A stretch of DNA of 64,000 nt from Oceanispirochaeta sp. Lineage in GTDB: Bacteria > Spirochaetota > Spirochaetia > DSM-2461. The notes under the pieces were generated by a model, which saw nothing but the letters and a program-made list of their open reading frames with translations, was not told the origin of the DNA and did no database searches. This document shows positions 17,117-32,011 of the stretch, piece by piece. The stretch's first letter is position 1; the number at the start of each line of letters is the position of its first letter. The DNA lies in assembly GCA_963666275.2 (NCBI GenBank), contig CAXXOA010000001.1, positions 1,312,001 through 1,376,000 on the forward strand, read 5' to 3'. The translations under genes and the position numbers were made by a program.

Positions 17117-17280
17117 TTGGAAATTCAGGCCTTGTCAAATCTGCGAAGTTGCAGATACACTGAATTTTACAAATCGATCCTGCTGAAAAGGGGGAGTCAG
17201 GAATGCCTGTTTCTGTCCCGTAGAAAAACAGCGGGATGAGAGAACAGTCCCTATCTGGAACAGGAATATCTGGAGTGAGT

Positions 17281-18897
17281 GTGAAAGTACTGATCGCCGA
17301 TGATGAACACAGAGTATGCCAGCTGATCAGGCATCTTATTCCCTGGGAAGAGTTCGGTCTGGACCTTGCCGGTATTGCCTACAACGGAATCGAAGCCTAT
17401 GAACTGATACGGACGGAGAAACCGGATATTGTCATCACAGATATCCGCATGCCCGGCTATGACGGGCTGACACTCCTTGAAAAAAGCAAGGAGCTGGATC
17501 CTTCCATCAGTTTTATTATTGTCAGCGGGTACAAGGACTTTGAGTATGCCCAGAAAGCCCTGAAATACGGAGCGGAAGACTATATTCTGAAACCTGTCTC
17601 CCATGATGATATCAACAGGATCCTGCGGAAGATCATCGACAGAAGGAACAGTGATCAGAACAGAATTCAGGAAGCCCTGGAAACCAGGGAGGAACTGGAA
17701 CAGAACAGGAATATCCTCAAAAAGGAGCTTGTTAAAAAGCTTCTCAATAGTGATTTCAAATTAGACAGCGAGACCCGGCAGAGTTTATCAAATGGAAATA
17801 TTGTGAATTTCCAGGCCCCCTGTTTTATGGTGTTTATCATTCAGGCGGACTGCATAGATCAGTCCCTTCTGGGGACAGAGCATTACAGTATCTCTGTAAA
17901 AATACTGGAAAGAGTGGAAGAGTTGGTCAACTCCCATGCCGGAGTGGAGGGGATCGAAACTCTGAGTGCCTATACAAAGTACAGTCTGATCTACCTGTGG
18001 GAGTGCCCCGGGCCTGCCATCAGCCGGGACGACTGGGAGCGGCTCCAGGAACAGGCCTCTCAGAAAATTGCCGGTTTCAGTGACTGGAGGGTCACATTCT
18101 GCATGGGGGGCGTGTATCCGGGCCTTGAGAATCTCAGTGCCAGCTATTCCGATGCCGAACTGATACGAAAAGACCGTCTGTTTCAGGGAACCGGGAAGGT
18201 GCTTACCCTGCGGCCGGATCTTCCCGGTTTTGAGAAATTTGAACAGCCTGACAGTGCCCCTCTGGCCGATGCGGTCAATAGAGTCCTGGAGAATCAGGAT
18301 CTGGACCAGTTTGCCTATGGGATCTCCACCTATGTGATCGGACTGACCCGGACGATTACTCATCCGGATCAGCTTTTCCGGACCTATCGATTTCTCTGTG
18401 ATGCGATTTTTGAACAGTTCAGAAAACTCAATGTGAACGGGGATTATATAGGCGAAGCATACGAAACGGCTGCATCCATATTAGACCTGACTCACAATAT
18501 GAAACTCATGAATACCCGTTTGTCCCGGCTGTTCAAAGATATGGCGAAAACTGTAATTTCCTCCCGGAAAGTGCTGGACAATAAACCCATCAGAATCGCC
18601 AAGGATTACATCTCCCGGAATTATGCCGAACCCATCGATCTTAATATGGTTGCCGCCCAGGCCGGTCTGAATCCCATCTATTTCAGTACCCTGTTCAAAA
18701 AGGAAACAGGAATGAATTTCAAGGACTTTCTGGTGGATATCCGTCTTGAGAAGGCCAGGGAGCTGCTTGTGAACAGCAATGAGACCATTCAGGAGATCAG
18801 TCACCTGGTGGGGTACAGGGATACAAGGTATTTCAGCAGAATATTTGCCAGGAATGTAGGCTTGAAACCCAATATCTACAGAAAAATCCATGGCTGA
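17281..18897 (+). CDS. YesN-type response regulator (receiver + C-terminal AraC HTH)
   Basis: VLIADDE, ITDIRMP, YILKP; C-terminal YFSTLFKKETG...YFSRIF. Likely GTG start 17281 after GGAG (ORF opens at 17236). Confidence 0.9.
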   Translation: MKVLIADDEHRVCQLIRHLIPWEEFGLDLAGIAYNGIEAYELIRTEKPDIVITDIRMPGYDGLTLLEKSKELDPSISFIIVSGYKDFEYAQKALKYGAEDYILKPVSHDDINRILRKIIDRRNSDQNRIQEALETREELEQNRNILKKELVKKLLNSDFKLDSETRQSLSNGNIVNFQAPCFMVFIIQADCIDQSLLGTEHYSISVKILERVEELVNSHAGVEGIETLSAYTKYSLIYLWECPGPAISRDDWERLQEQASQKIAGFSDWRVTFCMGGVYPGLENLSASYSDAELIRKDRLFQGTGKVLTLRPDLPGFEKFEQPDSAPLADAVNRVLENQDLDQFAYGISTYVIGLTRTITHPDQLFRTYRFLCDAIFEQFRKLNVNGDYIGEAYETAASILDLTHNMKLMNTRLSRLFKDMAKTVISSRKVLDNKPIRIAKDYISRNYAEPIDLNMVAAQAGLNPIYFSTLFKKETGMNFKDFLVDIRLEKARELLVNSNETIQEISHLVGYRDTRYFSRIFARNVGLKPNIYRKIHG

Positions 18898-19924
18898 TTA
18901 CAAGCTGCACTCCCACTCCCTGGCTGTTGAGCTCAAAAGGCATGTGGCTTTTCTTGTCCTGCTGGGCGTTCTCTTCCTGACGCTGACCTGTCTTCCTGTT
19001 CCCCGGGAATTGTGGGGAACCCTGGGCCGGGTGATCCTGGGCATTCTGCTTTTGGGGGATCTGGTTTCCCTGATTGTGTATGTCTACAGGCCTATTCGGA
19101 AAATGGAAGAGGCAATGAAACTGCTCACCCGGGGAGAACAATCCATTTTTGAGGAATTCAAACCGGAAAAAGACAGTGTCACCCTGTCCATCCATCTGCA
19201 TGAGCTCATTGAGATGCTCAAGCAGTCCCTTGATCGGGAGTACACATCGGATCTGCTGAAAAAAGAAGCTGAACTGAAGGCGCTTCAGAGTCAGATCAAT
19301 CCTCACTTCCTGTATAACGTTCTGGATGCTATCCGGGGACATGCCCTGACCGAGGGGGTTCCTGAAATAGCTGAAATGACGGAAGCCCTGTCGAATCTTT
19401 TCCGTTACAGCGTGAGTTACTGGGAAAACGAAGTTTCCCTGAAGAAGGAACTGGGAAATGTGGCCAGTTTTTTTAAAATTCAGCAGTACAGATTCAATAA
19501 CAAGTTTGATCTGCAGATCCTTGCCGGGGAGGATGAAGAGGAAACCCTGAAATGTCTGCTCCCCAAACTGACCCTGCAGCCCATTATTGAGAACTCCATC
19601 TACCACGGCCTGGAGATGAAACTGGATCACGGGCTGGTGACGATCAGAACCAGACTGTCCCGTACGGTCCTGCTTGTTGAAATCAGTGATGACGGGGTGG
19701 GGATGCCCGCAGAAATGGTCGACCAGTTAAACAGCGCCTTCCGGAACTGGCGGGACGCTCCCGGTGACAGAAAGAACTCCCGGGGAAGCGGCATCGCCCT
19801 TGCCAATGTGAACAGCAGGATCAAGATGATGTATGGAGAGGACTACGGACTCCATGTGTACAGTACGGAAAATTTCGGCACCACCGTGGAAATCCAGCTG
19901 CCTGTAAATAAAGAAGAGACATAG
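18890..19924 (+). CDS. YesM/LytS-type sensor histidine kinase with two closely spaced TM helices
   Basis: LQSQINPHFLYNVL, LQPIIENSIYHG, DDGVG, GIALANVNSRI. Confidence 0.9.
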   Translation: MADYKLHSHSLAVELKRHVAFLVLLGVLFLTLTCLPVPRELWGTLGRVILGILLLGDLVSLIVYVYRPIRKMEEAMKLLTRGEQSIFEEFKPEKDSVTLSIHLHELIEMLKQSLDREYTSDLLKKEAELKALQSQINPHFLYNVLDAIRGHALTEGVPEIAEMTEALSNLFRYSVSYWENEVSLKKELGNVASFFKIQQYRFNNKFDLQILAGEDEEETLKCLLPKLTLQPIIENSIYHGLEMKLDHGLVTIRTRLSRTVLLVEISDDGVGMPAEMVDQLNSAFRNWRDAPGDRKNSRGSGIALANVNSRIKMMYGEDYGLHVYSTENFGTTVEIQLPVNKEET

Positions 19925-19953
19925 GCCGCACTTGTGAGACCGGAGCAGGGAAT

Positions 19954-21408
19954 ATGGAAGAGTTAATACGAATCAGAGAACTTTCTACAGAAAACCCCTA
20001 TGAAGCATCCCTCAAGGATTTCAGACTCCAGTCTTTTGAAGGGGAGATCCTCGGGCTGGTGGGGCTGAACGGTTCCGGGAAAAGAACTCTCGTCAAAGTT
20101 CTGTCGGGAGAGATAAATCCTGTCGGCGGCCATGTGTTTCTTCAGGGAAAAGAGATTATCAGCCCCCTTCTGAAACCCGGAAGGAATCAGCTCGAACGGG
20201 AGGGCCTCTTTGTTGTTCAGAATATCAACAGACTTATCAAAGATCTGAGCATTTCAGAAAATCTCTCCATCTCCTCCAATATGAATTTCTTCAGTATGCT
20301 CCGGGCTCCCCACAATCTTGAAAAAATATCAGCCTCTGTTCTGGATGAGTTTATTCCGGAACTGGACCGTGATACCCCTGTGGACTATCTGCCCCCTGCG
20401 GAACATGCCCGGGTCGGTCTTCTGAAAGCCTATATGGAGGGAGCAAAGCTGATTGTTCTGGATGGGGTCCTTGAGGTCTGCCGCCGCAAAGAGGAAGAGG
20501 CGCTGATCACTCTGTTGAAACGGCTCAGGTCCAGAGGAGTGGGGATCATTGTCACCTACAACCGGGTGGCCCCTTTTCTGCAGTCTTTTGACAGGGTTGC
20601 CGTGATCTCCGGCGGGCAGCTTAAGAATATCATGTTCAGGGACAGCTTTAATCAGAGTCAGCTGGCGGACCTGATTGTCGGGGGCAAATACAGGGAACAA
20701 ACAGCTCACCGGGAAAGTTCCGATCCGCCGGTGAGCAGCAGGATCCTGGATGTCAGAAACATTTCTCTGGGAAAGAACTTCAGAAATTGCAGTTTTTATC
20801 TCTGCAGCGGAGAGATCCTGGGCATCCATGATCCTTTGAATGAAACCGCCCACAGGCTTCTTCAGTTGTTCAGCGGCATCATTCCCCTGGAACAGGGGAG
20901 AATCCATATAAACGGAAGAGTGCAGGAGCTTTTGAAAGAGCATAATGCCTTGCAGTCGGGATTAGGGATCGTTTCTGAAAAATTTTTCGAATACTCCTTT
21001 TTCAGAGGTTTGAACGCCGGGGAGAATCTGGAGATCTCGGCCGCGAAATCTGCTTCATCCCTGTGGGGGCACATCCCTTCTTCGTTGCATCACTATTTTC
21101 AGAAGAACTATCTCAGGAGCATAGGATTTTCAGAAGAGCTGCTGGAACAGCCTGTGGAGTATCTTGATCGGGATCTTCAGTTTATCCTGGTGCTTCATAT
21201 GAAGATCCTGAGCGGAGCAAAAATCTTTATTCTTGAAAACCCTGTTCAGAGTGCGGACCTTCTGTCCCGTGATCTTATCTACAGAAAAATGAGCTCTCTG
21301 CGGAAAAAGGGAATGGGTGCCATTTTTATCTCCGGTTCCATGGGCGAACTCGATGGTTTCTGCGACAGAATTCTCTACTGCGACTATAGTGAAGGAATAT
21401 TGAAATGA
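19954..21408 (+). CDS. Degenerate RbsA/MglA-like tandem ABC ATP-binding protein
   Basis: Two-NBD length; Walker A GLNGSGKR, but Walker B is LIVLDGV / IFILENP and there is no LSGG signature. Confidence 0.75.
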   Translation: MEELIRIRELSTENPYEASLKDFRLQSFEGEILGLVGLNGSGKRTLVKVLSGEINPVGGHVFLQGKEIISPLLKPGRNQLEREGLFVVQNINRLIKDLSISENLSISSNMNFFSMLRAPHNLEKISASVLDEFIPELDRDTPVDYLPPAEHARVGLLKAYMEGAKLIVLDGVLEVCRRKEEEALITLLKRLRSRGVGIIVTYNRVAPFLQSFDRVAVISGGQLKNIMFRDSFNQSQLADLIVGGKYREQTAHRESSDPPVSSRILDVRNISLGKNFRNCSFYLCSGEILGIHDPLNETAHRLLQLFSGIIPLEQGRIHINGRVQELLKEHNALQSGLGIVSEKFFEYSFFRGLNAGENLEISAAKSASSLWGHIPSSLHHYFQKNYLRSIGFSEELLEQPVEYLDRDLQFILVLHMKILSGAKIFILENPVQSADLLSRDLIYRKMSSLRKKGMGAIFISGSMGELDGFCDRILYCDYSEGILK

Positions 21409-22355
21409 AAGGTTCTACGGGGTATCTGAAAAAAAAGATTCATTACAATACGGCTGTGATTCTTATCCTGCTTCTGGGAGAATTCCTCGTTCTGAAGGTA
21501 TTTGTTCCCCAGTATCTATCACTGGGAAATATCATAAGCATCGGGAGACAGTCCTCCATCACAGGGATTATCGCCATCGCAATGGGGTTTGTCCTGATCA
21601 GCGGGGGCATTGATTTTTCCCTGGGATCCCAGATTGCCTTCAGCAGTATGATTGTCTCCATTTTCATGGTACGTCTGCACTTTCCCGTTGCCCCGGCACT
21701 GATTCTGGGCCTGACGGTATGCACGTTCTCAGGATTTCTTAACGGGATGATCTGTGCAAAAATCCGGATACACCCTTTTATTCTGACCATGGCGACAGGA
21801 GTCATTTACAGGGCCGCCGCCAAGGTCCTGAACTGGGGGATGCCTCTCTACGGGCTGCCCGAGGGGTTTCTGGGACTGGATCAGTTTCAGTTCCTCGGGC
21901 TGCCCCAGTCGCTTCTTATGCTTCTGCTCTGCCTTCTGGCCGGGCATTATATCCTGAGAAAAACCTACCTGGGAAAGTATATCTATGCCATCGGAATCGA
22001 TGAGAAAACGGCGGAGTTCGCCGGCATCAATACAAAGAAGATCAAATGGACGGTCTATGGAATCGCCGGTTTTTTCTGCGGAATCGCGGGCATCCTCCTC
22101 CTCGCCCGTGTGGGATCCGCCCAGCCTTCGGCCCTTTCCGGGATTGAACTGGATGTGCTTGTGGCCGCTGCGATCGGCGGTGTGGGATTCAAGGGAGGGA
22201 AGGGCTATCTTATCAATATAGTTCTGGGAGTCCTTATCATGGAATTTTTCGGCGATGCTCTGATTATTTTCGGTGTGGGCGAATATTTCCGGAATATTTT
22301 CAAGGGACTCGTTCTTCTCCTGGCCCTCTATATGGATGATGCGGTCAGATCTTAA
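21405..22355 (+). CDS. Monosaccharide ABC transporter permease (RbsC-like)
   Basis: ISGGIDFSLG, GKYIYAIG, ELDVLVAAAIGG. Confidence 0.88.
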   Translation: MKGSTGYLKKKIHYNTAVILILLLGEFLVLKVFVPQYLSLGNIISIGRQSSITGIIAIAMGFVLISGGIDFSLGSQIAFSSMIVSIFMVRLHFPVAPALILGLTVCTFSGFLNGMICAKIRIHPFILTMATGVIYRAAAKVLNWGMPLYGLPEGFLGLDQFQFLGLPQSLLMLLLCLLAGHYILRKTYLGKYIYAIGIDEKTAEFAGINTKKIKWTVYGIAGFFCGIAGILLLARVGSAQPSALSGIELDVLVAAAIGGVGFKGGKGYLINIVLGVLIMEFFGDALIIFGVGEYFRNIFKGLVLLLALYMDDAVRS

Positions 22356-22443
22356 TTTTCTCCCCTCATATCTTTAATCTGTCACATTGCGGTGTGAATT
22401 CTGCCCCTGTAAAATAAACTTATCATCAAGGGGAGAATGAATT

Positions 22444-23967
22444 TTGCCAAAACCTATTTTAGAAATGAAGGATATCACCAAATACTTTTCGGGTGTTCAG
22501 GTACTGGATAAGGTCTGTCTGAAGGTTATGCCCGGAGAAGTGCATGCGCTGATGGGTGAGAACGGGGCGGGCAAGTCAACACTAATGAATATCCTGATGG
22601 GAATTCATACGGCCGACGGCGGTGAAATCTTTCTGGAAGGGAAAGAGATTTCCAACAAAACTCCCAGGGAAGCCATGGACAGAGGCATCTCCATGATTCA
22701 TCAGGAGCTGCATCCCATCCGGGATATGGACGTGACGGAAAATATCTTTCTGGGAAGGGAAATCCGGAAAGGTACGGACGGTATTATAAGCCTGGTCAAT
22801 AAAAAAGAGATGCTGCATAAGGCCCGGGAGCTGTTCGAAGAACTGGGTATTGCCATCAGTCCTTCGGCTCTCATGCGGGATCTCAGTGTGGCTCAATGCC
22901 AGCTCATTGAAATGGTCAAAGCCATTTCCATTTCAGCCAAAGTTATAATTATGGATGAACCGACTTCTGCCATTACGGATAAAGAGGTTGATATCCTGTT
23001 CAAACAGATCCGCTATCTTAAATCCAAAGGGGTCTCCATCATCTATATCTCTCATAAAATGGACGAAATCTTTCAGATAGCCGATTCCATTACGGTCCTG
23101 CGGGACGGCCAGTATATCGGGACCGATGCTTCGGCAAATCTGAATAATGACAAACTTATAAGCATGATGGTGGGCCGGGAAATCAGCGGAATCTATCCGA
23201 AAGAGACCGTTTCGATTGGTGATGTCACCATGGAGGTGAAAAACCTCAGCTGGGGAAAAAGGGTCAGGAATGTCAATTTTGAACTCCATCAGGGAGAGAT
23301 CCTGGGGCTGGCAGGTCTTGTAGGCGCCGGGCGAAGCGAACTTGTGGAAACCCTGTTCGGCATTAACAGCAAAACTTCCGGAGAGATCTATATCCGGGGG
23401 AACAGGACGGATATCCGCAGACCTGCGGATGCGATCTCCCATCGTATCGCTCTGATCACCGAAGACAGGAAGAGATCGGGATTGAATCTGATCGGTTCGA
23501 TCACCGAAAACGTCACCCTGGCGTCTCTGGGCTCTCTTTTCTCGAAAGGGATTATCAACAAAAAACTGGAAGGATCCCTCACAGAAGAGAGTATTAAAAA
23601 ACACAAAGTGAAGACAGTTTCCAGAAAAGCCCTGGTCAAATCGCTCAGCGGCGGCAATCAGCAGAAGGTGGTCATCGCCAAGTGGCTTCTGACAGAACCG
23701 GATATCATCATTATGGATGAACCTACCCGGGGCATCGATGTGGGAGCCAAGCGGGATATCTACCTGCTGCTGGGAGAGCTTGTAAAAGCTGGAAAATCTG
23801 TACTTGTTATCTCATCGGAGATCCCCGAGATCATGGGGATTGCCGACCGGATCCTGATCATGGCGGAAGGACAGGTTACCGGAGAGCTGATGCGGGAAGA
23901 ATTTACACAGGAAAAAATTATGCATTACGCGTCAAAATTCAACAAAGGGAAAAAGAATGAAAAATAG
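22444..23967 (+). CDS. Monosaccharide ABC transporter ATP-binding protein (RbsA/MglA-like, intact)
   Basis: GENGAGKST, IIMDEPT, YISHKM, LSGGNQQK, DEPTRGIDVGAK. Confidence 0.93.
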   Translation: MPKPILEMKDITKYFSGVQVLDKVCLKVMPGEVHALMGENGAGKSTLMNILMGIHTADGGEIFLEGKEISNKTPREAMDRGISMIHQELHPIRDMDVTENIFLGREIRKGTDGIISLVNKKEMLHKARELFEELGIAISPSALMRDLSVAQCQLIEMVKAISISAKVIIMDEPTSAITDKEVDILFKQIRYLKSKGVSIIYISHKMDEIFQIADSITVLRDGQYIGTDASANLNNDKLISMMVGREISGIYPKETVSIGDVTMEVKNLSWGKRVRNVNFELHQGEILGLAGLVGAGRSELVETLFGINSKTSGEIYIRGNRTDIRRPADAISHRIALITEDRKRSGLNLIGSITENVTLASLGSLFSKGIINKKLEGSLTEESIKKHKVKTVSRKALVKSLSGGNQQKVVIAKWLLTEPDIIIMDEPTRGIDVGAKRDIYLLLGELVKAGKSVLVISSEIPEIMGIADRILIMAEGQVTGELMREEFTQEKIMHYASKFNKGKKNEK

Positions 23968-24919
23968 AAATGGAATATTGGCTTTAAGATCCATGAGGGA
24001 ACTGGGAATTGTTTTTGTTTTTATCTGTATCCTGGTAACCCTGATGATTCTATCACCCAATGCTTTTGCCAGGCCTGCCAACCTGATCAATATATTCAAA
24101 CAGGCCTCTATAAACGGGATTCTCGCCATGGGAATGATGTTTGTTATCATCTCCGGAGGGATCGACCTCTCTGTGGGATCCATTGTGGCCCTGACTGGTG
24201 TGGTGTCCGCCAGCTTTGCCCATCCCGGAGAGTACCCTCTGATCGTTCCCATTCTTCTGGCTCTAATCCTGGGACTTTTTATAGGATGGCTGAACGGCGT
24301 GGGTGTTTCCTACGGAAATATACCGGCCTTTATTGTGACACTGGGGATGATGACCATCATCCGGGGAGTGGCGCTTATCGTGGCAAAGGGAGCTCCTGTT
24401 TTCGGCGTGACAGATCAGTATGAACTCATCGCCGGAGGATTCCTTTTTGACACAATCCCATTTCTGGTTGTCTATTTCACGGCGATAACTGCATTCAGCG
24501 CCTATGTATTGAATAAGACAGTCTTCGGAAGGCGTGTCTATGCTGTGGGCGGGAATGAAATCTCCGCGGCTTTTTCGGGAATCAATGTCAATAAAATACG
24601 GATTATGGTATTTATGATCTCCGGACTCTTTGCGGGATTCGCCGGATTGCTCCTGGCCTCAAGAACTGTCTCGGGGAATCCCACGGCGGGTCAGTCCTAC
24701 GAACTGGATGCCATTGCCGCCGTTATTATCGGAGGCGTCAGTATGTCCGGCGGTTCCGGGAAATGGTATGGAACCGTGGTGGGCGCGCTGCTCATCGCCG
24801 TTATAGGAAATGGTCTGGACATACTCAATGTGTCGTCCCACTACCAGCTGGTTATCAAAGGGGCCATTATCATTTCTGCCGTACTACTGGATGTTAAAAG
24901 CAGGGAAAAAACGGTCTAG
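23957..24919 (+). CDS. Monosaccharide ABC transporter permease
   Basis: GGIDLSVGS, FGRRVYAVGGNE, YELDAIAAVIIGG. Confidence 0.92.
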   Translation: MKNRNGILALRSMRELGIVFVFICILVTLMILSPNAFARPANLINIFKQASINGILAMGMMFVIISGGIDLSVGSIVALTGVVSASFAHPGEYPLIVPILLALILGLFIGWLNGVGVSYGNIPAFIVTLGMMTIIRGVALIVAKGAPVFGVTDQYELIAGGFLFDTIPFLVVYFTAITAFSAYVLNKTVFGRRVYAVGGNEISAAFSGINVNKIRIMVFMISGLFAGFAGLLLASRTVSGNPTAGQSYELDAIAAVIIGGVSMSGGSGKWYGTVVGALLIAVIGNGLDILNVSSHYQLVIKGAIIISAVLLDVKSREKTV

Positions 24920-24949
24920 GCTGTTTGATATATATTAGAGGAGGAAGAT

Positions 24950-25879
24950 ATGAAAAAAATCTTTGCAATGGTTTTATTGTCGGTATTTGCACTCACAACC
25001 GGTCTGTTTGCTGCCGGACAGGGTGACAATGAAGGAAAGCCCCAGAAATATGCACTTATGATGAGTCATATGACCAATGCCTTCACCATGGAAATGTCCA
25101 GCGCGGTGAAGGAGAAAGCTGAAGAACTGGGAGTAAATCTGACTGTATTTGACGGAGAGCAGGATGTTTCCAAACAGATCAGCCAGGTGGAATCCGCGAT
25201 CATTCAGGGATATGTGGGAATTGTGATCGAACCTGTATCCGTGGATGGCGTTAAACCTGCCGTCAAGGCTGCCAAAGAAGCGGGTATACCGCTGATTACC
25301 CTGAACCAGAAAATCACTGATCAGGAACTGGCCAGTGCGTTTGTCGGAGCCAACCCCATCGAAGGGGGAGAGCTTGAAATGAGAACCGCTGCCGAAGAGA
25401 TGGGCGGATCCGGAAAAGTGGCTTTTCTGCTCGGACCTTTAGGTTCGGATGCGCAGATCGGCCGAACCCAGGGGTATAAAAATGTTCTGAAAGATTACCC
25501 CGGCATTGAAGTCGTCTACGAACAGACTGCCAACTGGAGAACCGATGAGGCTCTGGAACTGGTTGAAAACTGGCTTCAGACCGGTGTGGAACTGAAAGCC
25601 ATCGTGGCTAACAACGACGGTATGGCTCTTGGAGCACTGAAAGCCGTGGAAGATGCCAAGCTTCTGGATCAGATTAAAATCTACGGTCTTGATGCCACTC
25701 CCGATGCCATGGCTGCTGTCAAAGAAGGACGTCTGTCTGCGACTATTTCCCAGAGTACTTCCGAACAGGGAAAAACAGCAATGGAATCTATTGTGAAAAT
25801 TGTAAACGGAGAATCCATTCCCTCTGAAATCATTGTTGGACACACTCTGATTAACAGTTCCAATATCAACGATTTCTAA
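24950..25879 (+). CDS. Sugar ABC transporter substrate-binding protein (RbsB-like; ribose/inositol class)
   Basis: Signal peptide, ANNDGMALGA, IYGLDA, ATISQ; GAGGAGG RBS. Confidence 0.9.
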   Translation: MKKIFAMVLLSVFALTTGLFAAGQGDNEGKPQKYALMMSHMTNAFTMEMSSAVKEKAEELGVNLTVFDGEQDVSKQISQVESAIIQGYVGIVIEPVSVDGVKPAVKAAKEAGIPLITLNQKITDQELASAFVGANPIEGGELEMRTAAEEMGGSGKVAFLLGPLGSDAQIGRTQGYKNVLKDYPGIEVVYEQTANWRTDEALELVENWLQTGVELKAIVANNDGMALGALKAVEDAKLLDQIKIYGLDATPDAMAAVKEGRLSATISQSTSEQGKTAMESIVKIVNGESIPSEIIVGHTLINSSNINDF

Positions 25880-25904
25880 TTCGGAGAACAACATCTCTTT
25901 TCGG

Positions 25905-25936
25905 GGACCGGCAGATTGCTGCCGGTCCTTTTTTTT
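25905..25936 (+). terminator. Rho-independent terminator
   Basis: GGACCGGCAG-ATTG-CTGCCGGTCC hairpin followed by T8. Confidence 0.9.
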
Positions 25937-26102
25937 CCAAATAATTCCAGACGGCTCCGGTTTTTTCGAACCCACATTTCTGTGGGATTGTCAGATAATG
26001 GACACCCGGATGTATGACTTCGTAGGACCTTCGAGAGCACTTTGAAGATCAAAACCCTCCCTCACAGGCCTTTCGGATCTCCCGGAGCCATTGTTACCGG
26101 AT

Positions 26103-26118
26103 TGGCACTTTTATTGCA
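26103..26118 (+). promoter_or_regulatory. Sigma54 (-24/-12) promoter
   Basis: TGGCAC-TTTTA-TTGCA is an exact match to TGGCAC-N5-TTGCW, about 60 bp before the cheY-like start. Confidence 0.8.
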
Positions 26119-26176
26119 TTACTGTTCAGTAATAAAAACTTAGTAACAGAATAAATTAAAAAAACGGAGTCTGCCT

Positions 26177-26545
26177 GTGAAACTGTTAATTGTGGATGAT
26201 TCCAATATTATCCGTCGTGCCATCCAATTCTATCTGAAAGAGTTCAATATGGAGATCTGCGGTTCCGTCAGCAACGGAGAAGACGCGGTCCGCTGCTATG
26301 AGGAGCAGAAGCCCGATCTGGTGACCATGGATATCACCATGCCCGGTATGGACGGCCTCAGCGCCCTGGAGAAAATCATCGAAATAGATCCTGATGCGTC
26401 TGTGATTGTCATCTCAGCCCTGAAAGATAAAAGCACAGGCATCAAAGCCCTGACCCTGGGGGCCTGCGGATTCCTTTCCAAACCCTTTACCCCTGATCAG
26501 CTGAAAGAGGAAATACAGGCTTTCCTGGAGGAACGGAGCACATGA
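26177..26545 (+). CDS. Single-domain CheY-like response regulator
   Basis: LIVDDS, TMDITMPGMDG, ISA, FLSKPF; no output domain. Confidence 0.9.
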   Translation: MKLLIVDDSNIIRRAIQFYLKEFNMEICGSVSNGEDAVRCYEEQKPDLVTMDITMPGMDGLSALEKIIEIDPDASVIVISALKDKSTGIKALTLGACGFLSKPFTPDQLKEEIQAFLEERST

Positions 26546-27006
26546 AAGAAGAAGAGATTAAAGTCTTTATTGATATAGTCACCCACTATTTCCGGGAGAT
26601 CTCGGGAGAGGAAGCCCGCATGGGGGTTCCCTTTATCAAAAACGATAACCTGTCTGTCATGGACTATACAGGGATCATCGGGATCTCCGGTAAATACAGG
26701 GGAGGGATCTACCTCTCCGCCGACAGCGATCTTCTGGCCGAAGTGGCCTCATGCATTCTGGGGCTGGAAGCGGATCTGGTAGACGGGGAAGCCCGGGAGG
26801 ATATGCTGGGGGAGATTACCAATACCATCGCCGGGAATGCCCGCAGCAGCTTCGGCAGCCAGTTTATGATCTCCGTTCCCATTGTCATCAAGGGGCGCCC
26901 CGAGGATATCTCGTTCAAACTGAAACCGCCCGTTTTTGTCATCCCCATCACCTGGCGGGATCACTCCTGTTTTCTGGCCATCGGACTGGAAGAGGAGGCA
27001 TTATGA
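26542..27006 (+). CDS. cheX: CheX-family CheY-P phosphatase
   Basis: TGIIGISG..G, DMLGEITNTIAGNA (ExxN motif), ISVPIVI. Confidence 0.88.
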   Translation: MKEEEIKVFIDIVTHYFREISGEEARMGVPFIKNDNLSVMDYTGIIGISGKYRGGIYLSADSDLLAEVASCILGLEADLVDGEAREDMLGEITNTIAGNARSSFGSQFMISVPIVIKGRPEDISFKLKPPVFVIPITWRDHSCFLAIGLEEEAL

Positions 27007-29756
27007 TTGATATTCAGCAGCTTCTGGACGTGCTCTGGGTCATCATGGCATCGAGCCTTGTCTTTTTTATGCAGGCCGGATTTTCCATGGTGGAATCGGG
27101 GCTGACCCGTTCCAAAAACAGCATCAATGTGGCCGTCAAAAACCTGACCGACCTGGGGGTCTCCATCCTGATCTTCTGGGCCGTGGGGTTTGCCCTGATG
27201 TTCGGAAACAGTTACCGGGGTGTCTCGGGGATGAGCAACTGGTTTTTCCGCTTTTCCGACAATACCCTTATGATCTCGGCCGCCTTCTTTCTGTTCCAGG
27301 CTATGTTCTGCAGCACTTCGGCGACCATTGTTTCCGGTGCTGTGGCCGAAAGGATGCGCTACGCCTCCTATATCATAAGCACCATCCTGCTGTCGGGGAT
27401 TATCTATCCCGTCTTCGGCCACTGGGTCTGGGGCGGCGCAGGGGGCAGTGAAATCGGCCTCGGCTCAGGCTGGCTGGGGGCTATGGGATTTGTCGACTTT
27501 GCCGGCTCTTCGGTGGTTCACAGCGTGGGCGGCTGGGTAGGCCTGGCGATCCTTCTGATCATAGGGCCCCGGACCGGACGCTTTGCCGAAGACGGCACAT
27601 CCCGCCCTGTTCCCGGGAGCAGTATCCCCATGGCCGTAGGCGGGGTGATTATCCTGTGGTTCGGCTGGATCGGCTTTAACGGGGGCAGTACCCTGGTTAT
27701 GGACGGCAGCGTGCCCGGAATCATTATGAGAACCTGTCTGGCCGCTTCGGCGGGTATGGTAGGAGCCCTGGCGGCAGGGTGGATCATCAAGAAAACTCCC
27801 GACGTGGGATTTGTCCTGAACGGCGCCCTGGCCGGGCTTGTGGCTATTACCGCTCCGGTTCATGCGGTGAACGAGGTGGAATCGGTGATTATCGGCGCCG
27901 TGGGCGGGCTGGTTATGCTGATCTGTACGGACCTCCTGGAAAAGCTGAAAATCGACGACGCCGTGGGAGCCATACCGGTTCATCTGGCGGCGGGTATCTG
28001 GGGAACCCTGGCAGTGGGAATCTTCGGGGATCCTGAAATCCTGGGGACCACACCGTTGTTCGGTTCCCAGTTTCTGGTTCAGCTGATCGGAGTTGGGGCC
28101 TGCGGTCTCTGGAGTTTCCTCACAGCCTGGATCATCCTGAACATCATCAATAAAATATCGCCCCTCCGGGTTTCTGTAGAAGACGAACACAAAGGTCTCA
28201 ACGTGGCCGAGCACGGGGCATCCACCGAAACCTATCAGCTCTTCCAGGTCATGGAGGAGCAGGCCAGGTCGGGGGATCTTTCCCTGCGAGTGCCTGTGGA
28301 ACCCTTTACAGAAATCGGTCAGATTGCCGCGCGGTACAATGCGGCTCTGGCGGGGTTTGAAGAGAACTCGGTGGCCCGGAGCGACTACCAGACCATTCTG
28401 GACAACGTGAGCGACGGCCTTTTTCTCATTAACAGCGACGGGGCCATCTCACCCAATTACTCGGCGGCCACGGAAGGAATTTTCTGCCGGGAGGATCTGG
28501 CGGGAGTGACGCTGGAAGATCTTGTAAAACCCATGCTCACCGAAAAGGATTTCAAGGCTTTCAGTGACTATCTGCCCCTCCTTTTTGATCCCAAAATGAA
28601 AACAAGAACCCTGGACCGGCTCAATCCCCTGTCGGAAACGGCCTTTTATCTGGACACGGGAAAGGGGGAGTTCAATACCCGGTATCTGAAGTTCCGGTTC
28701 AGCCGGATTGCTCCGGAGGGGATCATTACCCATCTTATGATTCTGGTGACCGACTGTACCGCCGAAAAGGAGATCGCCCAGTCTCTGGAGGCGGAAAGGC
28801 GGAAAAACCAGGGGGAAATGGAGATGTTCTACAGCATCCTTCACCTCCAGCCCGATCTTTTCCGGGAGTTTCTCTCAAGCGCCGAAGAGGACCTGGACAG
28901 AGTCAATGAGGCTCTGGAACATCAGGGAGTAGGACTGGGGCAGCGTCTGGAGGAGATCTTCCGGCATATCCATTCGGTCAAGGGAAACGCCGCTCTCCTG
29001 GAGCTGGATTTCATAGCCCAGAGTGCCCATGAGTTTGAAGACGCCATACAGGAACTTCTGGAGAAAAAAGACCTTCAGAATGACGATTTTCTTGGTCTGA
29101 CCGTTATGCTCAGCGAAATGTACGGCGTGCTGGAGCAGATCCGCCGGCTGATGGAACGGCTCAGCAATTTCAGGGAAAATATGGTGAAACATGATCAGAT
29201 GGGCGGGGAACTGATTGCTCTCTCCCTGCAGAAGCTTGCGGGAAAAACAGCCGAAGAGCTGGGTAAGAAAGTGGAGTTCCGGTTTCAGGATTTCCGGAGC
29301 CGGGACATTCCACCGGCCTACAGAAAACCCCTGAAGGATCTGATGATCCAGCTGGTGCGCAATGCGGTTTCCCACGGTATCGAAGAGGAGAAGATCCGGA
29401 TCATGAACGGAAAAACCCCGGTGGGCCGTCTGGAGATAAAAAGCCGGCTGGACGAGGGCGTTCTGACCCTCACAGTCCGGGACGACGGACGGGGACTGGA
29501 TTTTCTGAAACTGAGAGACCGTTCTGTGCAGCTGAATCCGGACAATCCCAGGGAGGATAAAAAGAGTCTGTTCCTTTCTATGTTCCAGTCGGGAATCTCC
29601 ACCGCAGACGAGGTGGGCCGGCACAGCGGCCGGGGCGTGGGAATGGCTCTTGTAAAAACCATTGCGGAAGAACTGAAGGCCCGGCTTGTGGTGAAAACCA
29701 GGGAAAACCAGTTTTGCGAATTCAATCTTTCCATCCCTCTGGAGGGCAGCTTATGA
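27003..29756 (+). CDS. Ammonium transporter (Amt) fused to HAMP-like, PAS, HPt and CheA-type HATPase domains, without a CheW domain
   Basis: Start ATG 27003 (GAGG RBS, ATGA overlap with cheX); 917 aa. Amt: FMQAGF, SGAVAER, DFAGSSVVH, WIGFNGGS, DDAVGAIPVH. HAMP-like: GDLSLRVPVEPFTEIGQIAARYN. PAS: ILDNVSDGLFLI. HPt: IFRHIHSVKG. Kinase: LVRNAVSHGIE, DDGRG, GISTADEVGRHSGRGVGM. Confidence 0.92.
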   Translation: MIDIQQLLDVLWVIMASSLVFFMQAGFSMVESGLTRSKNSINVAVKNLTDLGVSILIFWAVGFALMFGNSYRGVSGMSNWFFRFSDNTLMISAAFFLFQAMFCSTSATIVSGAVAERMRYASYIISTILLSGIIYPVFGHWVWGGAGGSEIGLGSGWLGAMGFVDFAGSSVVHSVGGWVGLAILLIIGPRTGRFAEDGTSRPVPGSSIPMAVGGVIILWFGWIGFNGGSTLVMDGSVPGIIMRTCLAASAGMVGALAAGWIIKKTPDVGFVLNGALAGLVAITAPVHAVNEVESVIIGAVGGLVMLICTDLLEKLKIDDAVGAIPVHLAAGIWGTLAVGIFGDPEILGTTPLFGSQFLVQLIGVGACGLWSFLTAWIILNIINKISPLRVSVEDEHKGLNVAEHGASTETYQLFQVMEEQARSGDLSLRVPVEPFTEIGQIAARYNAALAGFEENSVARSDYQTILDNVSDGLFLINSDGAISPNYSAATEGIFCREDLAGVTLEDLVKPMLTEKDFKAFSDYLPLLFDPKMKTRTLDRLNPLSETAFYLDTGKGEFNTRYLKFRFSRIAPEGIITHLMILVTDCTAEKEIAQSLEAERRKNQGEMEMFYSILHLQPDLFREFLSSAEEDLDRVNEALEHQGVGLGQRLEEIFRHIHSVKGNAALLELDFIAQSAHEFEDAIQELLEKKDLQNDDFLGLTVMLSEMYGVLEQIRRLMERLSNFRENMVKHDQMGGELIALSLQKLAGKTAEELGKKVEFRFQDFRSRDIPPAYRKPLKDLMIQLVRNAVSHGIEEEKIRIMNGKTPVGRLEIKSRLDEGVLTLTVRDDGRGLDFLKLRDRSVQLNPDNPREDKKSLFLSMFQSGISTADEVGRHSGRGVGMALVKTIAEELKARLVVKTRENQFCEFNLSIPLEGSL

Positions 29757-31030
29757 CACCCGATGCGGGACTCCTTGAAAATGTCTCCCATGTGTACGAG
29801 AAGATTCCCGGACAGGATCAGGATGTGGATATCTTTGTACTGGAACCACCCCGGGAGCTGGATAAGGAGGATCCGGAAGGACGGGTTCTCCGGAAGGCCG
29901 GCCCGGGACGGCGCAAATCCAAAACGGTGAGCATGCTCAGTCACAGCCTCTATTATGTGACCGAAGACTGCCCCCTGGACCGGCTTGTGGAGGAACTTTC
30001 CGCCAAGAAGGACCTTTTTTCCATCGGTGTGGTGGACTCCCGGGGAGAAGCCAAGGGCCTTATCATCCGGCGGGAGCTCTTTGATCTTGTAGGCCGGTCG
30101 GGGAACACCGATCCCATGAAAGGGAAGAGGGCCGCCCAGGTTATGAAACTTGTCAAAACCTTTGCTCCCGATACCAGCGTTTTTTCTGTCGGCTCGGTGG
30201 TGGAAGAGGAAATGAAGGAAAGCCTGATCGTCTACTTTATGATCAAGGACGAGTACGGCCGCTTTGCCGGGTCTTTCTCCACCAAGGACCTGATGCTCTT
30301 CTATGCCCGGAACATGAACAGGGAAATGCAGCTGGTACAGGAAATTCAGAGCCGGATCGTCGAGCCCCAGGCCCGGCTGGATCTGTCAGACGGCGGGGCG
30401 GTCTGCGGAGTGAACCGCCATGCCCGGGAGGCCGGAGGAGACTATTTCCTGATCCGCCGGGTCCCGGACGGAAGGATTTTTTATGCCCTGGCGGATGTGT
30501 CGGGCAAGGGATACGCCGCCTCCCTTCTGACGGCAATCATAGGCTCCTTTCTGGAGAATACGACTTTTTCAAAAGGCCTTGCCGGATCCATTGGGAATCT
30601 CAACCGCTTTCTGCAGGAGAAATTCGCCGAAAAGGGGCTTTTTGTCACAGGCGTCTTCGTCCTGTTTGACGAAAAAAGCCCTGTTCTGGAAGTGTGCAAC
30701 TGCGCCCATCCCTTTTTCTATGTCCTGAGACGCAGAAAAATGAGAAAACTGAAGAGCCGTTCCAATCCTCCTCTGGGACTGGAGGGAGTGGATACACTGG
30801 AATGCTTCAATATCCGGCCCGAACCGGGGGACTGTCTGTTCCTCTGCAGCGACGGTATACCCGAACAGATGAATGAACTGGGCGAAACCTTTCCCCTTGC
30901 CTCTCTAGGGGGCATGACCGATCAGATCGACAAAGGGAAATTCCGCGAAAAGGTTCTGTCTGAAATCGACAGCTTCCGGGGATTTGCTCCCCAGCACGAT
31001 GATATTACCCTGCTGGTTCACCGCGTCTAA
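29753..31030 (+). CDS. CBS-pair + PP2C (SpoIIE/RsbU-type) phosphatase
   Basis: ATGA overlap with the kinase. CBS-like IGVVDSRGEAKGLIIRRELF and GRFAGSFSTKDL; PP2C motifs GGDYF, ADVSGKG, CSDGI, DDIT. Confidence 0.85.
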   Translation: MTPDAGLLENVSHVYEKIPGQDQDVDIFVLEPPRELDKEDPEGRVLRKAGPGRRKSKTVSMLSHSLYYVTEDCPLDRLVEELSAKKDLFSIGVVDSRGEAKGLIIRRELFDLVGRSGNTDPMKGKRAAQVMKLVKTFAPDTSVFSVGSVVEEEMKESLIVYFMIKDEYGRFAGSFSTKDLMLFYARNMNREMQLVQEIQSRIVEPQARLDLSDGGAVCGVNRHAREAGGDYFLIRRVPDGRIFYALADVSGKGYAASLLTAIIGSFLENTTFSKGLAGSIGNLNRFLQEKFAEKGLFVTGVFVLFDEKSPVLEVCNCAHPFFYVLRRRKMRKLKSRSNPPLGLEGVDTLECFNIRPEPGDCLFLCSDGIPEQMNELGETFPLASLGGMTDQIDKGKFREKVLSEIDSFRGFAPQHDDITLLVHRV

Positions 31031-31069
31031 AGAACACACATCCCTTCATGAAACTGAAGGGAACCCCTT

Positions 31070-32011
31070 TCAGCGGGACGCCTTGTCCAGCAAATCCAGA
31101 TCCTCTCTGTCCAGTTCCAGTTCGGGAGCTCTGAAAATGGTTTCCAGCTGTGTAATGCTTGTTGCACTGACGATCGGGGCTGTGATATCCGGCTTAGCCA
31201 GCAGCCAGGCAAGAGATACCATGGCGGGAGAGGCATTGTGCTTTTCCGACACCCGGTCCAGCGCGCTTAGTACATTCAAGCCCTGTTTGTTAAGATAGGG
31301 ACGGACCATTTCCGCCCGGGCTGAGCCTTCAAGGTCCTGGGTGCTTCTGTATTTCCCCGTAAGAAATCCGGCAGCCAGGGAAAAATAGGGAAACACCGAA
31401 AGATCGTATTCCTGCACCAGCGGCCTGTAGTTCTCCTCATAGGAAGGTTCTACAAGACTGTATTTAGGCTGGAGAACCGCATAGGCCGGGAGGGATTCTC
31501 CTGCTGATACCTCCATAGACTCTTTCAGCCGCTGGGGCGTCAGGTTCGATGCCCCTATATACCGGACCTTACCGGCTTTGATGATTTCATCGTAGGCCGA
31601 AAGGGTTTCTTCCACAGGGGTTTTCCCGTCATCAAAATGGGTATAGTAGATATCGATATAATCGGTCTGAAGGCGCCGGAGGGACTCATCTACACTTTTC
31701 AGAATGTGTTTCCTGCTGCTGTCTATGGGATGATTCTGATTCTGGGAACCCACCTTTGTGGCAATAACAATGCGGTCTCTGTTTTTCCGTTCACTCATCC
31801 AGGAACCGATGATTTTTTCTGACGTTTCTCCCACACCATTATGCCACCAGGGGTAGGTATCGGCAGTGTCTATAAAATTGAATCCTCCATCCTGAAAGGC
31901 ATCGAGAATTTCAAAGGACTGTTTCTGATCCAGAGTCCAGCCGAAAACATTGCCTCCGAAGTTGATAGGGCCCACAGAAAGGTCTGTATTTTTTATTTGA
32001 ACGCGATTCAT
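31070..32011 (-). CDS. Aldo/keto reductase
   Basis: FGGNVFGW, FIDTADTY, IATKVG, SLRRLQTDYIDIY, GKVRYIGASN. Confidence 0.93.
   Translation of the reverse strand: MNRVQIKNTDLSVGPINFGGNVFGWTLDQKQSFEILDAFQDGGFNFIDTADTYPWWHNGVGETSEKIIGSWMSERKNRDRIVIATKVGSQNQNHPIDSSRKHILKSVDESLRRLQTDYIDIYYTHFDDGKTPVEETLSAYDEIIKAGKVRYIGASNLTPQRLKESMEVSAGESLPAYAVLQPKYSLVEPSYEENYRPLVQEYDLSVFPYFSLAAGFLTGKYRSTQDLEGSARAEMVRPYLNKQGLNVLSALDRVSEKHNASPAMVSLAWLLAKPDITAPIVSATSITQLETIFRAPELELDREDLDLLDKASR

Follow-up and report, generated by a model that had tools for sequence, protein, structure and literature searches.

An ammonium transporter-type domain fused to a CheA-like kinase and encoded with CheY-like and CheX proteins in Oceanispirochaeta

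What does a membrane protein sense, and to which partner does it report, when an ammonium transporter (Amt) domain and the catalytic core of a chemotaxis kinase are joined in one polypeptide? The question is raised by one gene in a stretch of 64,000 nucleotides of Oceanispirochaeta sp. (positions 1,312,001 to 1,376,000 of contig CAXXOA010000001.1, assembly GCA_963666275.2), which we call the window and to which our coordinates refer unless another locus is named. Only two Amt-based receptors have been studied, with class I kinase and diguanylate cyclase outputs, and neither has a known downstream partner. Ks-Amt5 of 'Candidatus Kuenenia stuttgartiensis' carries a kinase composed of dimerisation and histidine phosphotransfer (DHp) and catalytic (CA) domains, like TM0853 (PMC5764959), and Sd-Amt1 of Shewanella denitrificans is an Amt-HAMP-diguanylate cyclase (PMC11152129); here and below, statements on cited papers refer to the portions of their text available to us. 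A preliminary description of the window, made from its letters alone, had assigned a class I HisKA kinase to Ks-Amt5 and had taken Amt-diguanylate cyclase fusions to be known, and both statements agree with these sources. We propose that the Amt-type part of the protein studied here acts as an ammonium receptor for the CheA-like (Hpt + P4) kinase to which it is fused, and that ammonium binding likely leads to phosphorylation of a CheY-like protein, which would be reset by CheX.

We found that the frame 27003-29756 (+) encodes 917 residues with one terminal stop and no internal stops, as the preliminary description had it, and the nine motifs quoted there all lie in the translation: FQAMF at residue 98, HWVW at 140, VVH at 171, GFN at 224, NGGS at 226 and PVH at 325 in the Amt part, and HSVKG at 657, RNAVSHGIE at 786 and SGRGVGM at 875 in the kinase part. 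The ATG at 27003 lies 5 nucleotides past a GGAGG and shares ATGA with the stop codon of the upstream gene, and at the other end the stop codon TGA (29754-29756) overlaps with the start codon ATG of the gene that follows. A longer frame from an ATG at 26751 (1001 amino acids (aa)) was rejected as the start because it runs through the CheX gene and because homologues align from residues 5-9 of the 917-residue form.

The same architecture occurs in at least 64 other full-length proteins, almost all of them from Spirochaetota. A protein search with residues 408-917 listed 120 proteins, the first 85 of which were examined for architecture; 64 of these, 880-945 aa long, combine Amt with HATPase_c and nearly all have Hpt, and together with the query they make up the 65-protein alignment used below. 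Named carriers are Spirochaeta dissipatitropha, several bins assigned to Spirochaetota and Leptospirales, and Treponema brennaborense (WP_013757366.1, labelled 'ammonium transporter' and bearing the UniRef name 'Multi-sensor signal transduction histidine kinase'). When 401 genomes of Spirochaetota were sampled, 18 (including that of the window) gave a match running from the Amt end to the kinase end in an open frame of 877-1063 aa, and a few further junction matches were cut by contig ends. A locus search with the full-length alignment was swamped by Amt: of its 77 loci, four (L006, L008, L014 and L026) approach the full query and another (L007) matches residues 4-569 only. We give practically no credence to the idea, for which we met no argument, that the gene is misassembled or decayed and that Amt and kinase are truly separate, as the frame is single and open, 64 other full-length fused proteins are known, and the fused frame lacks internal stops in all 18 genomes with the full-length junction match. 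Positions 26100-31100 are, moreover, covered by Logan contigs of two runs without a difference or a gap, although both runs come from one sample, which may be the source of the assembly itself. No stop or frameshift between Amt and kinase, the fault of which the preliminary description had warned, occurs in the frame or in these read-derived contigs. The fusion is genuine and not a product of assembly.

Pfam recognised three domains in the protein, Ammonium_transp at residues 11-407 (expectation value (E) 2.8e-116), Hpt at 618-712 (E 2.8e-12) and HATPase_c at 780-914 (E 2e-13). It gave no match to CheW, H-kinase_dim, HisKA, PAS or HAMP, and none to any HisKA-family model up to E 1; NCBIfam matched the C-terminal kinase end to CheA models only, with scores below their cut-offs. 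An AlphaFold model of residues 408-917 had a mean predicted local distance difference test score (pLDDT) of 90.5, with 121 sequences in the alignment. Used whole in Foldseek, the model reached template modelling (TM) scores of only 0.22-0.24 to PAS-kinase chains, owing to the arrangement of its domains. Pfam, the alignment to Sd-Amt1, the models and Foldseek together support the order Amt, HAMP-like, PAS, Hpt and CheA-type ATPase of the preliminary description, which was also right that a P5/CheW end is lacking: the protein stops 5 residues past P4. Beyond the absence of CheW, the P3 dimerisation domain is missing too.

The kinase half resembles CheA in its Hpt and ATPase domains. In the model, a helix of residues 586-613 links the PAS domain to the Hpt bundle (617-728), whose helices have pLDDT above 90 and which bears His657 on its second helix. 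The family profile matched the CheA P1 structures 1i5n and 1tqg with E of about 3e-8, and H657-x-x-K660-G661 is invariant in both the 65- and the 121-protein alignments. The ATP boxes N787, H791-G792-x-E794, D827-x-G829-x-G831 and G876-x-G878-x-G880 are invariant in the 65 proteins. Superposition of the P4 domain on chain 1i58_B with VIA-align (model residues 326-507 on Thermotoga maritima CheA 356-540) gave a Z score of 21.5 and an rmsd value of 2.3 Å over 169 aligned residues, whereas the next fold classes, branched-chain ketoacid dehydrogenase kinases and HK853, reached Z of at most 15.8, about 6 Z lower. Likewise, CheA chains scored E of 1e-53 to 1e-51 with the family profile; HisKA-type kinases came out at 4e-7 or worse, and there the match was confined to the final 40-60 residues of the ATPase.

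According to Berry, Andrianova and Zhulin (2023; PMC10782961), all CheAs consist of P1, P3, P4 and P5 and have no sensor domain. Our protein shares two of these features, a P1/Hpt domain with its predicted phospho-accepting His and a P4 catalytic domain, and departs from the definition in the other three, since P3 is absent, P5/CheW is absent, and a sensor of its own (Amt, HAMP-like and PAS) is present. As to P3, Pfam H-kinase_dim gave no match in the protein and the model leaves no room for it, with Hpt ending at 728 and P4 starting at 733; a six-frame search of the genome found H-kinase_dim only in two canonical CheA genes elsewhere. The DHp helix pair with an H-box that characterises class I sensor kinases was not seen with Pfam or the profile. 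Because it fails the published definition on three features, the kinase, which uses the substrate and catalytic domains of CheA, is not itself a CheA.

The solved structure nearest to the Amt part is that of Sd-Amt1 (8qj3; E 3.4e-119, aligned over residues 9-450); Ks-Amt5 comes next (6eu6; E 8e-91), and E. coli AmtB is distant (E about 4e-35). The pore histidines H173 and H327, the Phe gate (F102 and F220), F98, F225, W143, D165 and S229 are invariant in the 65-protein alignment. The residues of the N1/N2 ammonium site and of the switch have been named for Sd-Amt1 (PMC11152129), and by way of the alignment just described Sd-Amt1 Q22, F25, E29, K44, N45, D48, T104, S107, Y119 and N269 correspond to Q24, F27, E31, K46, N47, D50, T108, S111, Y123 and N273 of the present protein. 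Of these, K46, T108, S111, Y123 and the exit-narrowing N273 are invariant in the 65 proteins, and F27, E31 and D50 are kept in 64. All the N1/N2 ligands (E31, N47, D50, T108 and S111) are thus present, and the published signature, Q-x6-E-x15-N-x2-D-[F/T]-x54-60-T-x2-[S/T], fits residues 24-111 save for Leu51.

As a marker of fused sensors, this signature was tried and dropped. The N1/N2 residues do not split sensors from transporters, because unfused paralogues in the genome share them, and plant AMT1 carries them as well (PMC11152129). The published pattern missed two paralogues, a fusion of Amt with a methyl-accepting chemotaxis protein (MCP) and one plain Amt, in which column-wise mapping showed the residues to be there; one paralogue (Amt_a) has Ala at position 111 and keeps the other N1/N2 residues. 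Judged by these residues, the protein would belong to the receptor-capable cluster 2 of Pfluger et al. (2024), an assignment that does not prove loss of transport. It has, in addition, the C-terminal cytoplasmic transducer of a receptor, residues 408-917.

The linker below the membrane aligns with residues 405-446 of Sd-Amt1, which the authors of that paper call HAMP (PMC11152129), and in the model it forms helices 409-423 and 437-468. Residues 389-446 are the best-conserved cytoplasmic stretch of the 65-protein alignment, with P431, E433, P434, F435, T436, E437, G439, I441, A442 and N446 invariant. When folded alone, the PAS domain, which is alpha/beta in the model, reached a pLDDT of 87.9 and a predicted TM score of 0.75. 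The top Foldseek matches listed for this isolated fold are PAS domains (FixL 8js5, the best at E 4e-7, DosP, the Rv1364c PAS and LOV), and their TM, taken on the target, rises to 0.75. At the same position Pfam gives a PAS_4 match in one family member, and S487, N541, P542 and D584 are invariant in the 121 proteins. The predicted structure, then, confirms a PAS fold at residues 472-584.

The strongest clue to function is a CheY-CheX partnership that the preliminary description had not seen. The kinase gene is the third of four tightly packed genes, encoding a CheY-like regulator, CheX, the kinase and a CBS-PP2C protein, after which a convergent aldo-keto reductase gene follows. The regulator matched Pfam Response_reg (PF00072, E 2.2e-30), its nearest solved chains are the true CheYs 6er7 and 1tmy (E about 1e-26), and D7, D8, D52 and K102 are invariant in 19 orthologues. 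CheX matched PF13690 above its cut-off (E 1.6e-20) as well as the solved CheX/CheC-like chains 3iic (E 3e-15) and 3hm4 (E 1e-13), and its sequence holds D-x3-E-x2-N in REDMLGEITN. Genes for a CheY-like protein and then CheX lie directly upstream of the kinase gene, in the same order, in all 18 loci examined in relatives (three named related loci and 15 of the 17 further full-match genomes, with G094 and the contig-end G236 left out). On the 3' side, a CBS-PP2C gene follows in the window and in 4 of the 18 relatives and a PAS-class III nucleotide cyclase gene in 6, the rest having nothing related there. The CBS-PP2C protein of the window matched SpoIIE (PF07228, E 2.7e-30) and CBS (E 2e-5), and its acidic residues D230, D248, D367, D416 and D417, which we take to bind metals, are invariant in five orthologues.

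On these grounds the following course of events can be proposed. As in Sd-Amt1 and Ks-Amt5, ammonium would bind next to the pore at the N1/N2 site; a resulting shift of the Amt C-terminus would travel via the HAMP-like helices and the PAS domain and set how often P4 phosphorylates His657. The phosphoryl group would then pass from His657 to Asp52 of the CheY-like protein, from which CheX would rapidly clear it, making the signal fast and resettable. How a dimeric kinase or cyclase works under a trimeric sensor is an open problem for both published receptors (PMC5764959, PMC11152129). With a self-contained Hpt in place of a dimeric DHp, two-fold symmetry, which fits poorly under a trimeric Amt, would not be needed. 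The ammonium-receptor reading is supported because the catalytic residues are invariant in the 65 proteins, the Amt part is nearest to proven receptors, and CheY and CheX are fixed in all 18 relatives' loci. It draws further support from one gammaproteobacterial cassette that has a separate Amt, and from the reuse of Amt + HAMP with GGDEF and MCP outputs in the same genome.

The genome's Amt set, indeed, comprises three Amt + HAMP sensors, with kinase, GGDEF and MCP outputs, and two unfused Amt genes. The MCP fusion, outside the window at about 919.4-921.8 kb (L005:1369-3714, G000:C1), is an Amt-HAMP-MCPsignal protein of 781 aa in which Pfam places Amt at 45-449, HAMP at 452-496 and MCPsignal at 623-766. 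The GGDEF fusion, a 671-aa protein of the Sd-Amt1 type, also lies outside the window, at about 816.7-818.7 kb (L004:1339-3354, G000:C2).

The cytoplasmic module is far more widespread than its fusion to Amt. A search with residues 452-917 returned, at E 1e-30 or better, 1,102 representatives (of clusters at 50% identity) among 1.84 billion, and nearly all of the best 150 matches cover almost the whole query and end at the C-terminus of their protein. We scanned 60 members with Pfam, taking every second of 139 newly returned proteins and trimming to 60. HATPase_c was present in all 60 and Hpt in 53; the N-terminal domains included PilJ (13), Reg_prop/Y_Y_Y (10), HAMP (5), GAF, ROK and PAS (3 each), Amt and MASE6 (2 each) and dCache (1), and neither CheW nor H-kinase_dim was among the 25 Pfam families listed for these members. 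ROK, a sugar kinase/repressor family, is an unusual input for a histidine kinase. The PAS-Hpt-P4 module is therefore a large family with interchangeable sensors.

The chemotaxis-type partners also recur in this wider family. Non-Amt members of Spirochaetota had CheX in 7 of 10 and CheY in 4 of 10 cases within 1.5-kb flanks, and among 300 sampled Gammaproteobacteria, five genomes carried nine copies, in all nine of which CheY comes next and CheX after it. A tree of 44 receivers united the 19 from Amt cassettes, the 9 from gammaproteobacterial ones and one other spirochaete regulator in one clade (support 96/98), sister to the canonical CheYs of the genome; three regulators of more distant spirochaete cassettes fell outside it. 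The best paralogue of the window's regulator within its own genome, in the canonical che locus, is 42.6% identical.

Several gammaproteobacterial loci are worth recording. In one (L157:387-5361, G701:C79), the operon encodes a kinase without a Pfam sensor, CheY, CheX, a separate Amt of 434 aa directly after CheX (PF00909, E 6e-106) and a 229-aa protein without a Pfam family. In another genome, a PilJ-sensor cassette lies beside nirD and nirB, for assimilatory nitrite reductase (L158:6607-12750, G425:C15), and a second cassette directly follows a gene for an SbtA-like bicarbonate transporter (L160:5037-9150, G425:C2). A further cassette is followed by a fusion of a receiver with a Ser/Thr protein kinase (Pkinase; L156:5091-9507, G701:C61), which, like the PP2C of the window, hints at a link to Ser/Thr phosphorylation. 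Finally, two kinase-CheY-CheX cassettes stand in tandem at L154:5742-13431 (G524:C19), one of them with two CheX genes. The Amt, nirBD and SbtA-like neighbours suggest a general link of the cassette with the transport or assimilation of nutrients.

A bolder generalization, which we put forward as speculation and would not expect to hold in full, is that PAS-Hpt-P4 with CheY and CheX constitutes a third, undescribed but widespread style of His-Asp signalling, intermediate between chemotaxis and two-component systems. Kinases of this style would bear their own sensors, dispense with CheW and P3, and read nutrients directly: ammonium via Amt, probably nitrate via PilJ and perhaps bicarbonate beside SbtA. 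The self-contained Hpt would let each protomer of a trimer signal alone, and if this were true it would solve the mismatch between trimeric sensor and dimeric output met in the work on Ks-Amt5 and Sd-Amt1.

Some observations speak against the ammonium-receptor reading. Position 51 is Leu, whereas the published signature has Phe or Thr; N47 (kept in 56 proteins, Val in 9) and Q24 (kept in 55, Arg in 9) are each substituted in 9 of the 65 relatives; the N1/N2 residues recur in all five Amt paralogues of the genome, among them the two that are not fused; Pfam HAMP gives no match to the linker; the PAS domain may carry a signal of its own; and ammonium binding, autophosphorylation and phosphotransfer are predictions from sequence and models. 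The Amt domain might, for instance, still import ammonium as a transceptor, with the kinase reporting flux or regulating the pore. This would fit the invariance of the pore histidines, Phe gate, Trp/Ser site and D165, the N1/N2 residues of the unfused paralogues, and the published remark that ammonium is transported by members of cluster 2, plant AMT1 for one, whose role may be dual (PMC11152129). We nevertheless consider it improbable, as Ks-Amt5 and Sd-Amt1 keep the same pore residues, no complete translocation having been found for Ks-Amt5 (PMC11152129), the Asn that narrows the exit of Sd-Amt1 (Asn-269) is invariant here as N273, and two unfused Amt genes are available for uptake. Still harder to credit is a scheme in which the PAS domain is the real sensor, of a cytoplasmic ligand such as a nitrogen or energy metabolite, and Amt serves chiefly to anchor the protein in the membrane or to supply an additional input. 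PAS is present in every family member under any N-terminal sensor, with S487, N541, P542 and D584 invariant, and its nearest structures include ligand-binding PAS domains. However, a domain that stays constant under Amt, PilJ, Reg_prop/Y_Y_Y, GAF, HAMP and ROK looks like a transmission element, and the best-conserved region is the Amt + HAMP part. FixL binds heme via a His, and no invariant His is listed for this PAS domain, so that a FixL-type heme ligand is missing.

If the protein is an ammonium receptor acting through the CheY-like regulator, the target of that regulator has also to be considered. A protein outside motility, for which the presumably co-transcribed CBS-PP2C is a possibility here, is our leading candidate, with somewhat less than an even chance; the flagellar switch, in spirochaetes, is a less probable one, and something else would account for the remainder. 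Binding of the phosphorylated regulator to the flagellar switch would amount to ammonium taxis without chemoreceptor arrays, CheW or methylation. The close relation of the regulator to true CheYs, in structure searches and as a clade sister to the canonical CheYs, the membership of CheX in a chemotaxis-type phosphatase family, and the fact that the genome encodes FliM as well as two canonical CheAs agree with this. We hold it doubtful all the same: the cassette regulators form their own clade, the Amt-MCP fusion of the genome could already serve taxis, and FliM was found in only one of the five cassette-bearing gammaproteobacterial genomes (completeness not stated), as against CheW in all five, which speaks against the flagellar switch as a general target. 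Alternatively, the regulator might control the presumably co-transcribed enzyme, CBS-PP2C here and PAS-cyclase elsewhere, and thereby feed a Ser/Thr-phosphorylation or cyclic-nucleotide pathway. In 11 of 19 loci (5 with PP2C, 6 with cyclase), a receiver-less signalling enzyme is indeed encoded 3' of the kinase, from which it does not differ in strand and with which it often overlaps, the acidic motifs of PP2C are invariant in its five orthologues, and the receiver-Ser/Thr kinase fusion follows one gammaproteobacterial cassette. The remaining 8 of the 19 loci, however, have no such gene though CheY and CheX are always there, and PP2C, found in only 5 loci with the window counted, is hardly a general target; for these reasons we entertain this output only tentatively. 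We know of no precedent for CheY binding a CBS-PP2C. A complex prediction for the two proteins of the window scored 0.01 against a mark of 0.32, which is no answer and counts neither way.

The features of the locus are collected in Table 1. Upstream of the four-gene operon lies a separate unit at 17236-25879. Its regulator is a receiver-AraC protein encoded at 17236-18897 and its kinase, at 18890-19924, is of the His_kinase/HATPase_c type; the unit also encodes a sugar-type ABC transporter, made up of a periplasmic binding protein, two permeases and the products of two ATPase genes. A hairpin closes this unit.

Table 1 Features of the kinase operon and of the fused protein, in window coordinates
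Feature	Position	Strand	Basis
Terminator-like hairpin at the end of the sugar-ABC operon upstream; bounds the four-gene operon on its 5' side	25903..25930	+	12-bp stem, 8 GC pairs, T run; consensus match only
Single-domain CheY-like response regulator, 122 aa, predicted phospho-acceptor Asp52	26177..26545	+	Pfam Response_reg
CheX-family phosphatase, 154 aa, with the CheY-like protein as predicted substrate	26542..27006	+	Pfam CheX
Amt-HAMP-PAS-Hpt-P4 sensor kinase gene, 917 aa	27003..29756	+	Translation, Pfam, family alignment
Amt domain, residues 11-407, receptor type (AmR, cluster 2)	27033..28223	+	PF00909 E 2.8e-116
HAMP-like two-helix linker, residues 409-468	28227..28406	+	Sd-Amt1 alignment, model
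PAS-fold domain, residues 472-584	28416..28754	+	Isolated fold, Foldseek
Hpt four-helix bundle, residues 617-728; His657 codon 28971-28973	28851..29186	+	Pfam, profile, model
CheA-P4-type ATP-binding catalytic domain, residues 733-912	29199..29738	+	Structure superposition, family profile
CBS + PP2C (SpoIIE-family) Ser/Thr phosphatase, 425 aa, last operon gene, variable accessory	29753..31030	+	Pfam SpoIIE, CBS

Amt-based receptors as such are already known, and many Amt-based signalling systems have been said to await discovery (PMC11152129); what is new here is the Hpt/CheA-type kinase output with CheY and CheX partners. A full-text literature search, which covered few subscription journals, found no paper on an Amt input to a CheA-type kinase, in line with the preliminary description, which had called such an input uncharacterised. 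The same search found no description of the kinase-CheY-CheX cassette or of an Amt-Hpt kinase, including in the accessible parts of PMC10433425, PMC5764959, PMC11152129 and PMC10782961, and no paper on an Amt-MCP fusion. Nor did it find the proposal, cited in the preliminary description, that sensor-bearing CheA-like kinases without CheW are evolutionary intermediates. The family adds a third output to the two studied, and its operon names the likely partners, a CheY-like acceptor and a CheX phosphatase, so that four genes could suffice to reconstitute the full path from external ammonium to the phosphorylated regulator. It suggests that the catalytic core of CheA is workable without chemoreceptors, CheW or a dimerisation domain when wired directly to a sensor, which bears on the relation of chemotaxis kinases to ordinary sensor kinases. 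The Amt-kinase, Amt-GGDEF and Amt-MCP proteins of one genome, furthermore, offer a natural comparison of three readouts of one nutrient.

The system can be set beside several others. Sd-Amt1 (8qj3) has in common with it the N1/N2 ligands, the switch Lys and Tyr, the exit-narrowing Asn, an alignment that continues through the HAMP region, and the general logic of an Amt trimer that senses and carries a cytoplasmic transducer at its C-terminus. It differs in having Phe-49 where Leu51 stands here, and in its GGDEF domain, which makes cyclic di-GMP, whereas here PAS-Hpt-P4 is combined with a dedicated CheY-like acceptor and CheX. Ks-Amt5 (6eu6) is likewise an Amt fused to a histidine kinase, the phosphorylation of which responds to ammonium in vitro (PMC5764959). 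That kinase, however, is of the class I DHp + CA type and, in the text available to us, has no HAMP and no identified regulator (PMC5764959), whereas in the present protein the predicted phospho-His lies on an Hpt domain, the ATPase is of the CheA-P4 type, HAMP-like and PAS segments stand between sensor and kinase, and a regulator and a phosphatase are encoded alongside. The wider PAS-Hpt-P4 cassettes (for example that of a Neptuniibacter 'ATP-binding protein', P0115) share the C-terminal module of 460 residues and the CheY and CheX neighbours, but their N-terminal sensors differ and the gammaproteobacterial gene order is kinase-CheY-CheX. In the split gammaproteobacterial form, the kinase module, CheY, CheX and an Amt gene are all present, but Amt is a separate protein, and coupling would need protein-protein contact. 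The CheAs of T. maritima and E. coli (1i58, 1b3q, 6s1k) share the P1-type Hpt with H-x-x-K-G, the P4 domain and, as partners, a CheY-type regulator and a CheX phosphatase; unlike them, the present kinase lacks P2, P3 and P5 and has its own transmembrane sensor. At its input, then, the protein would work in the manner of Sd-Amt1 and Ks-Amt5, and at its output in that of CheA's P1-P4 core.

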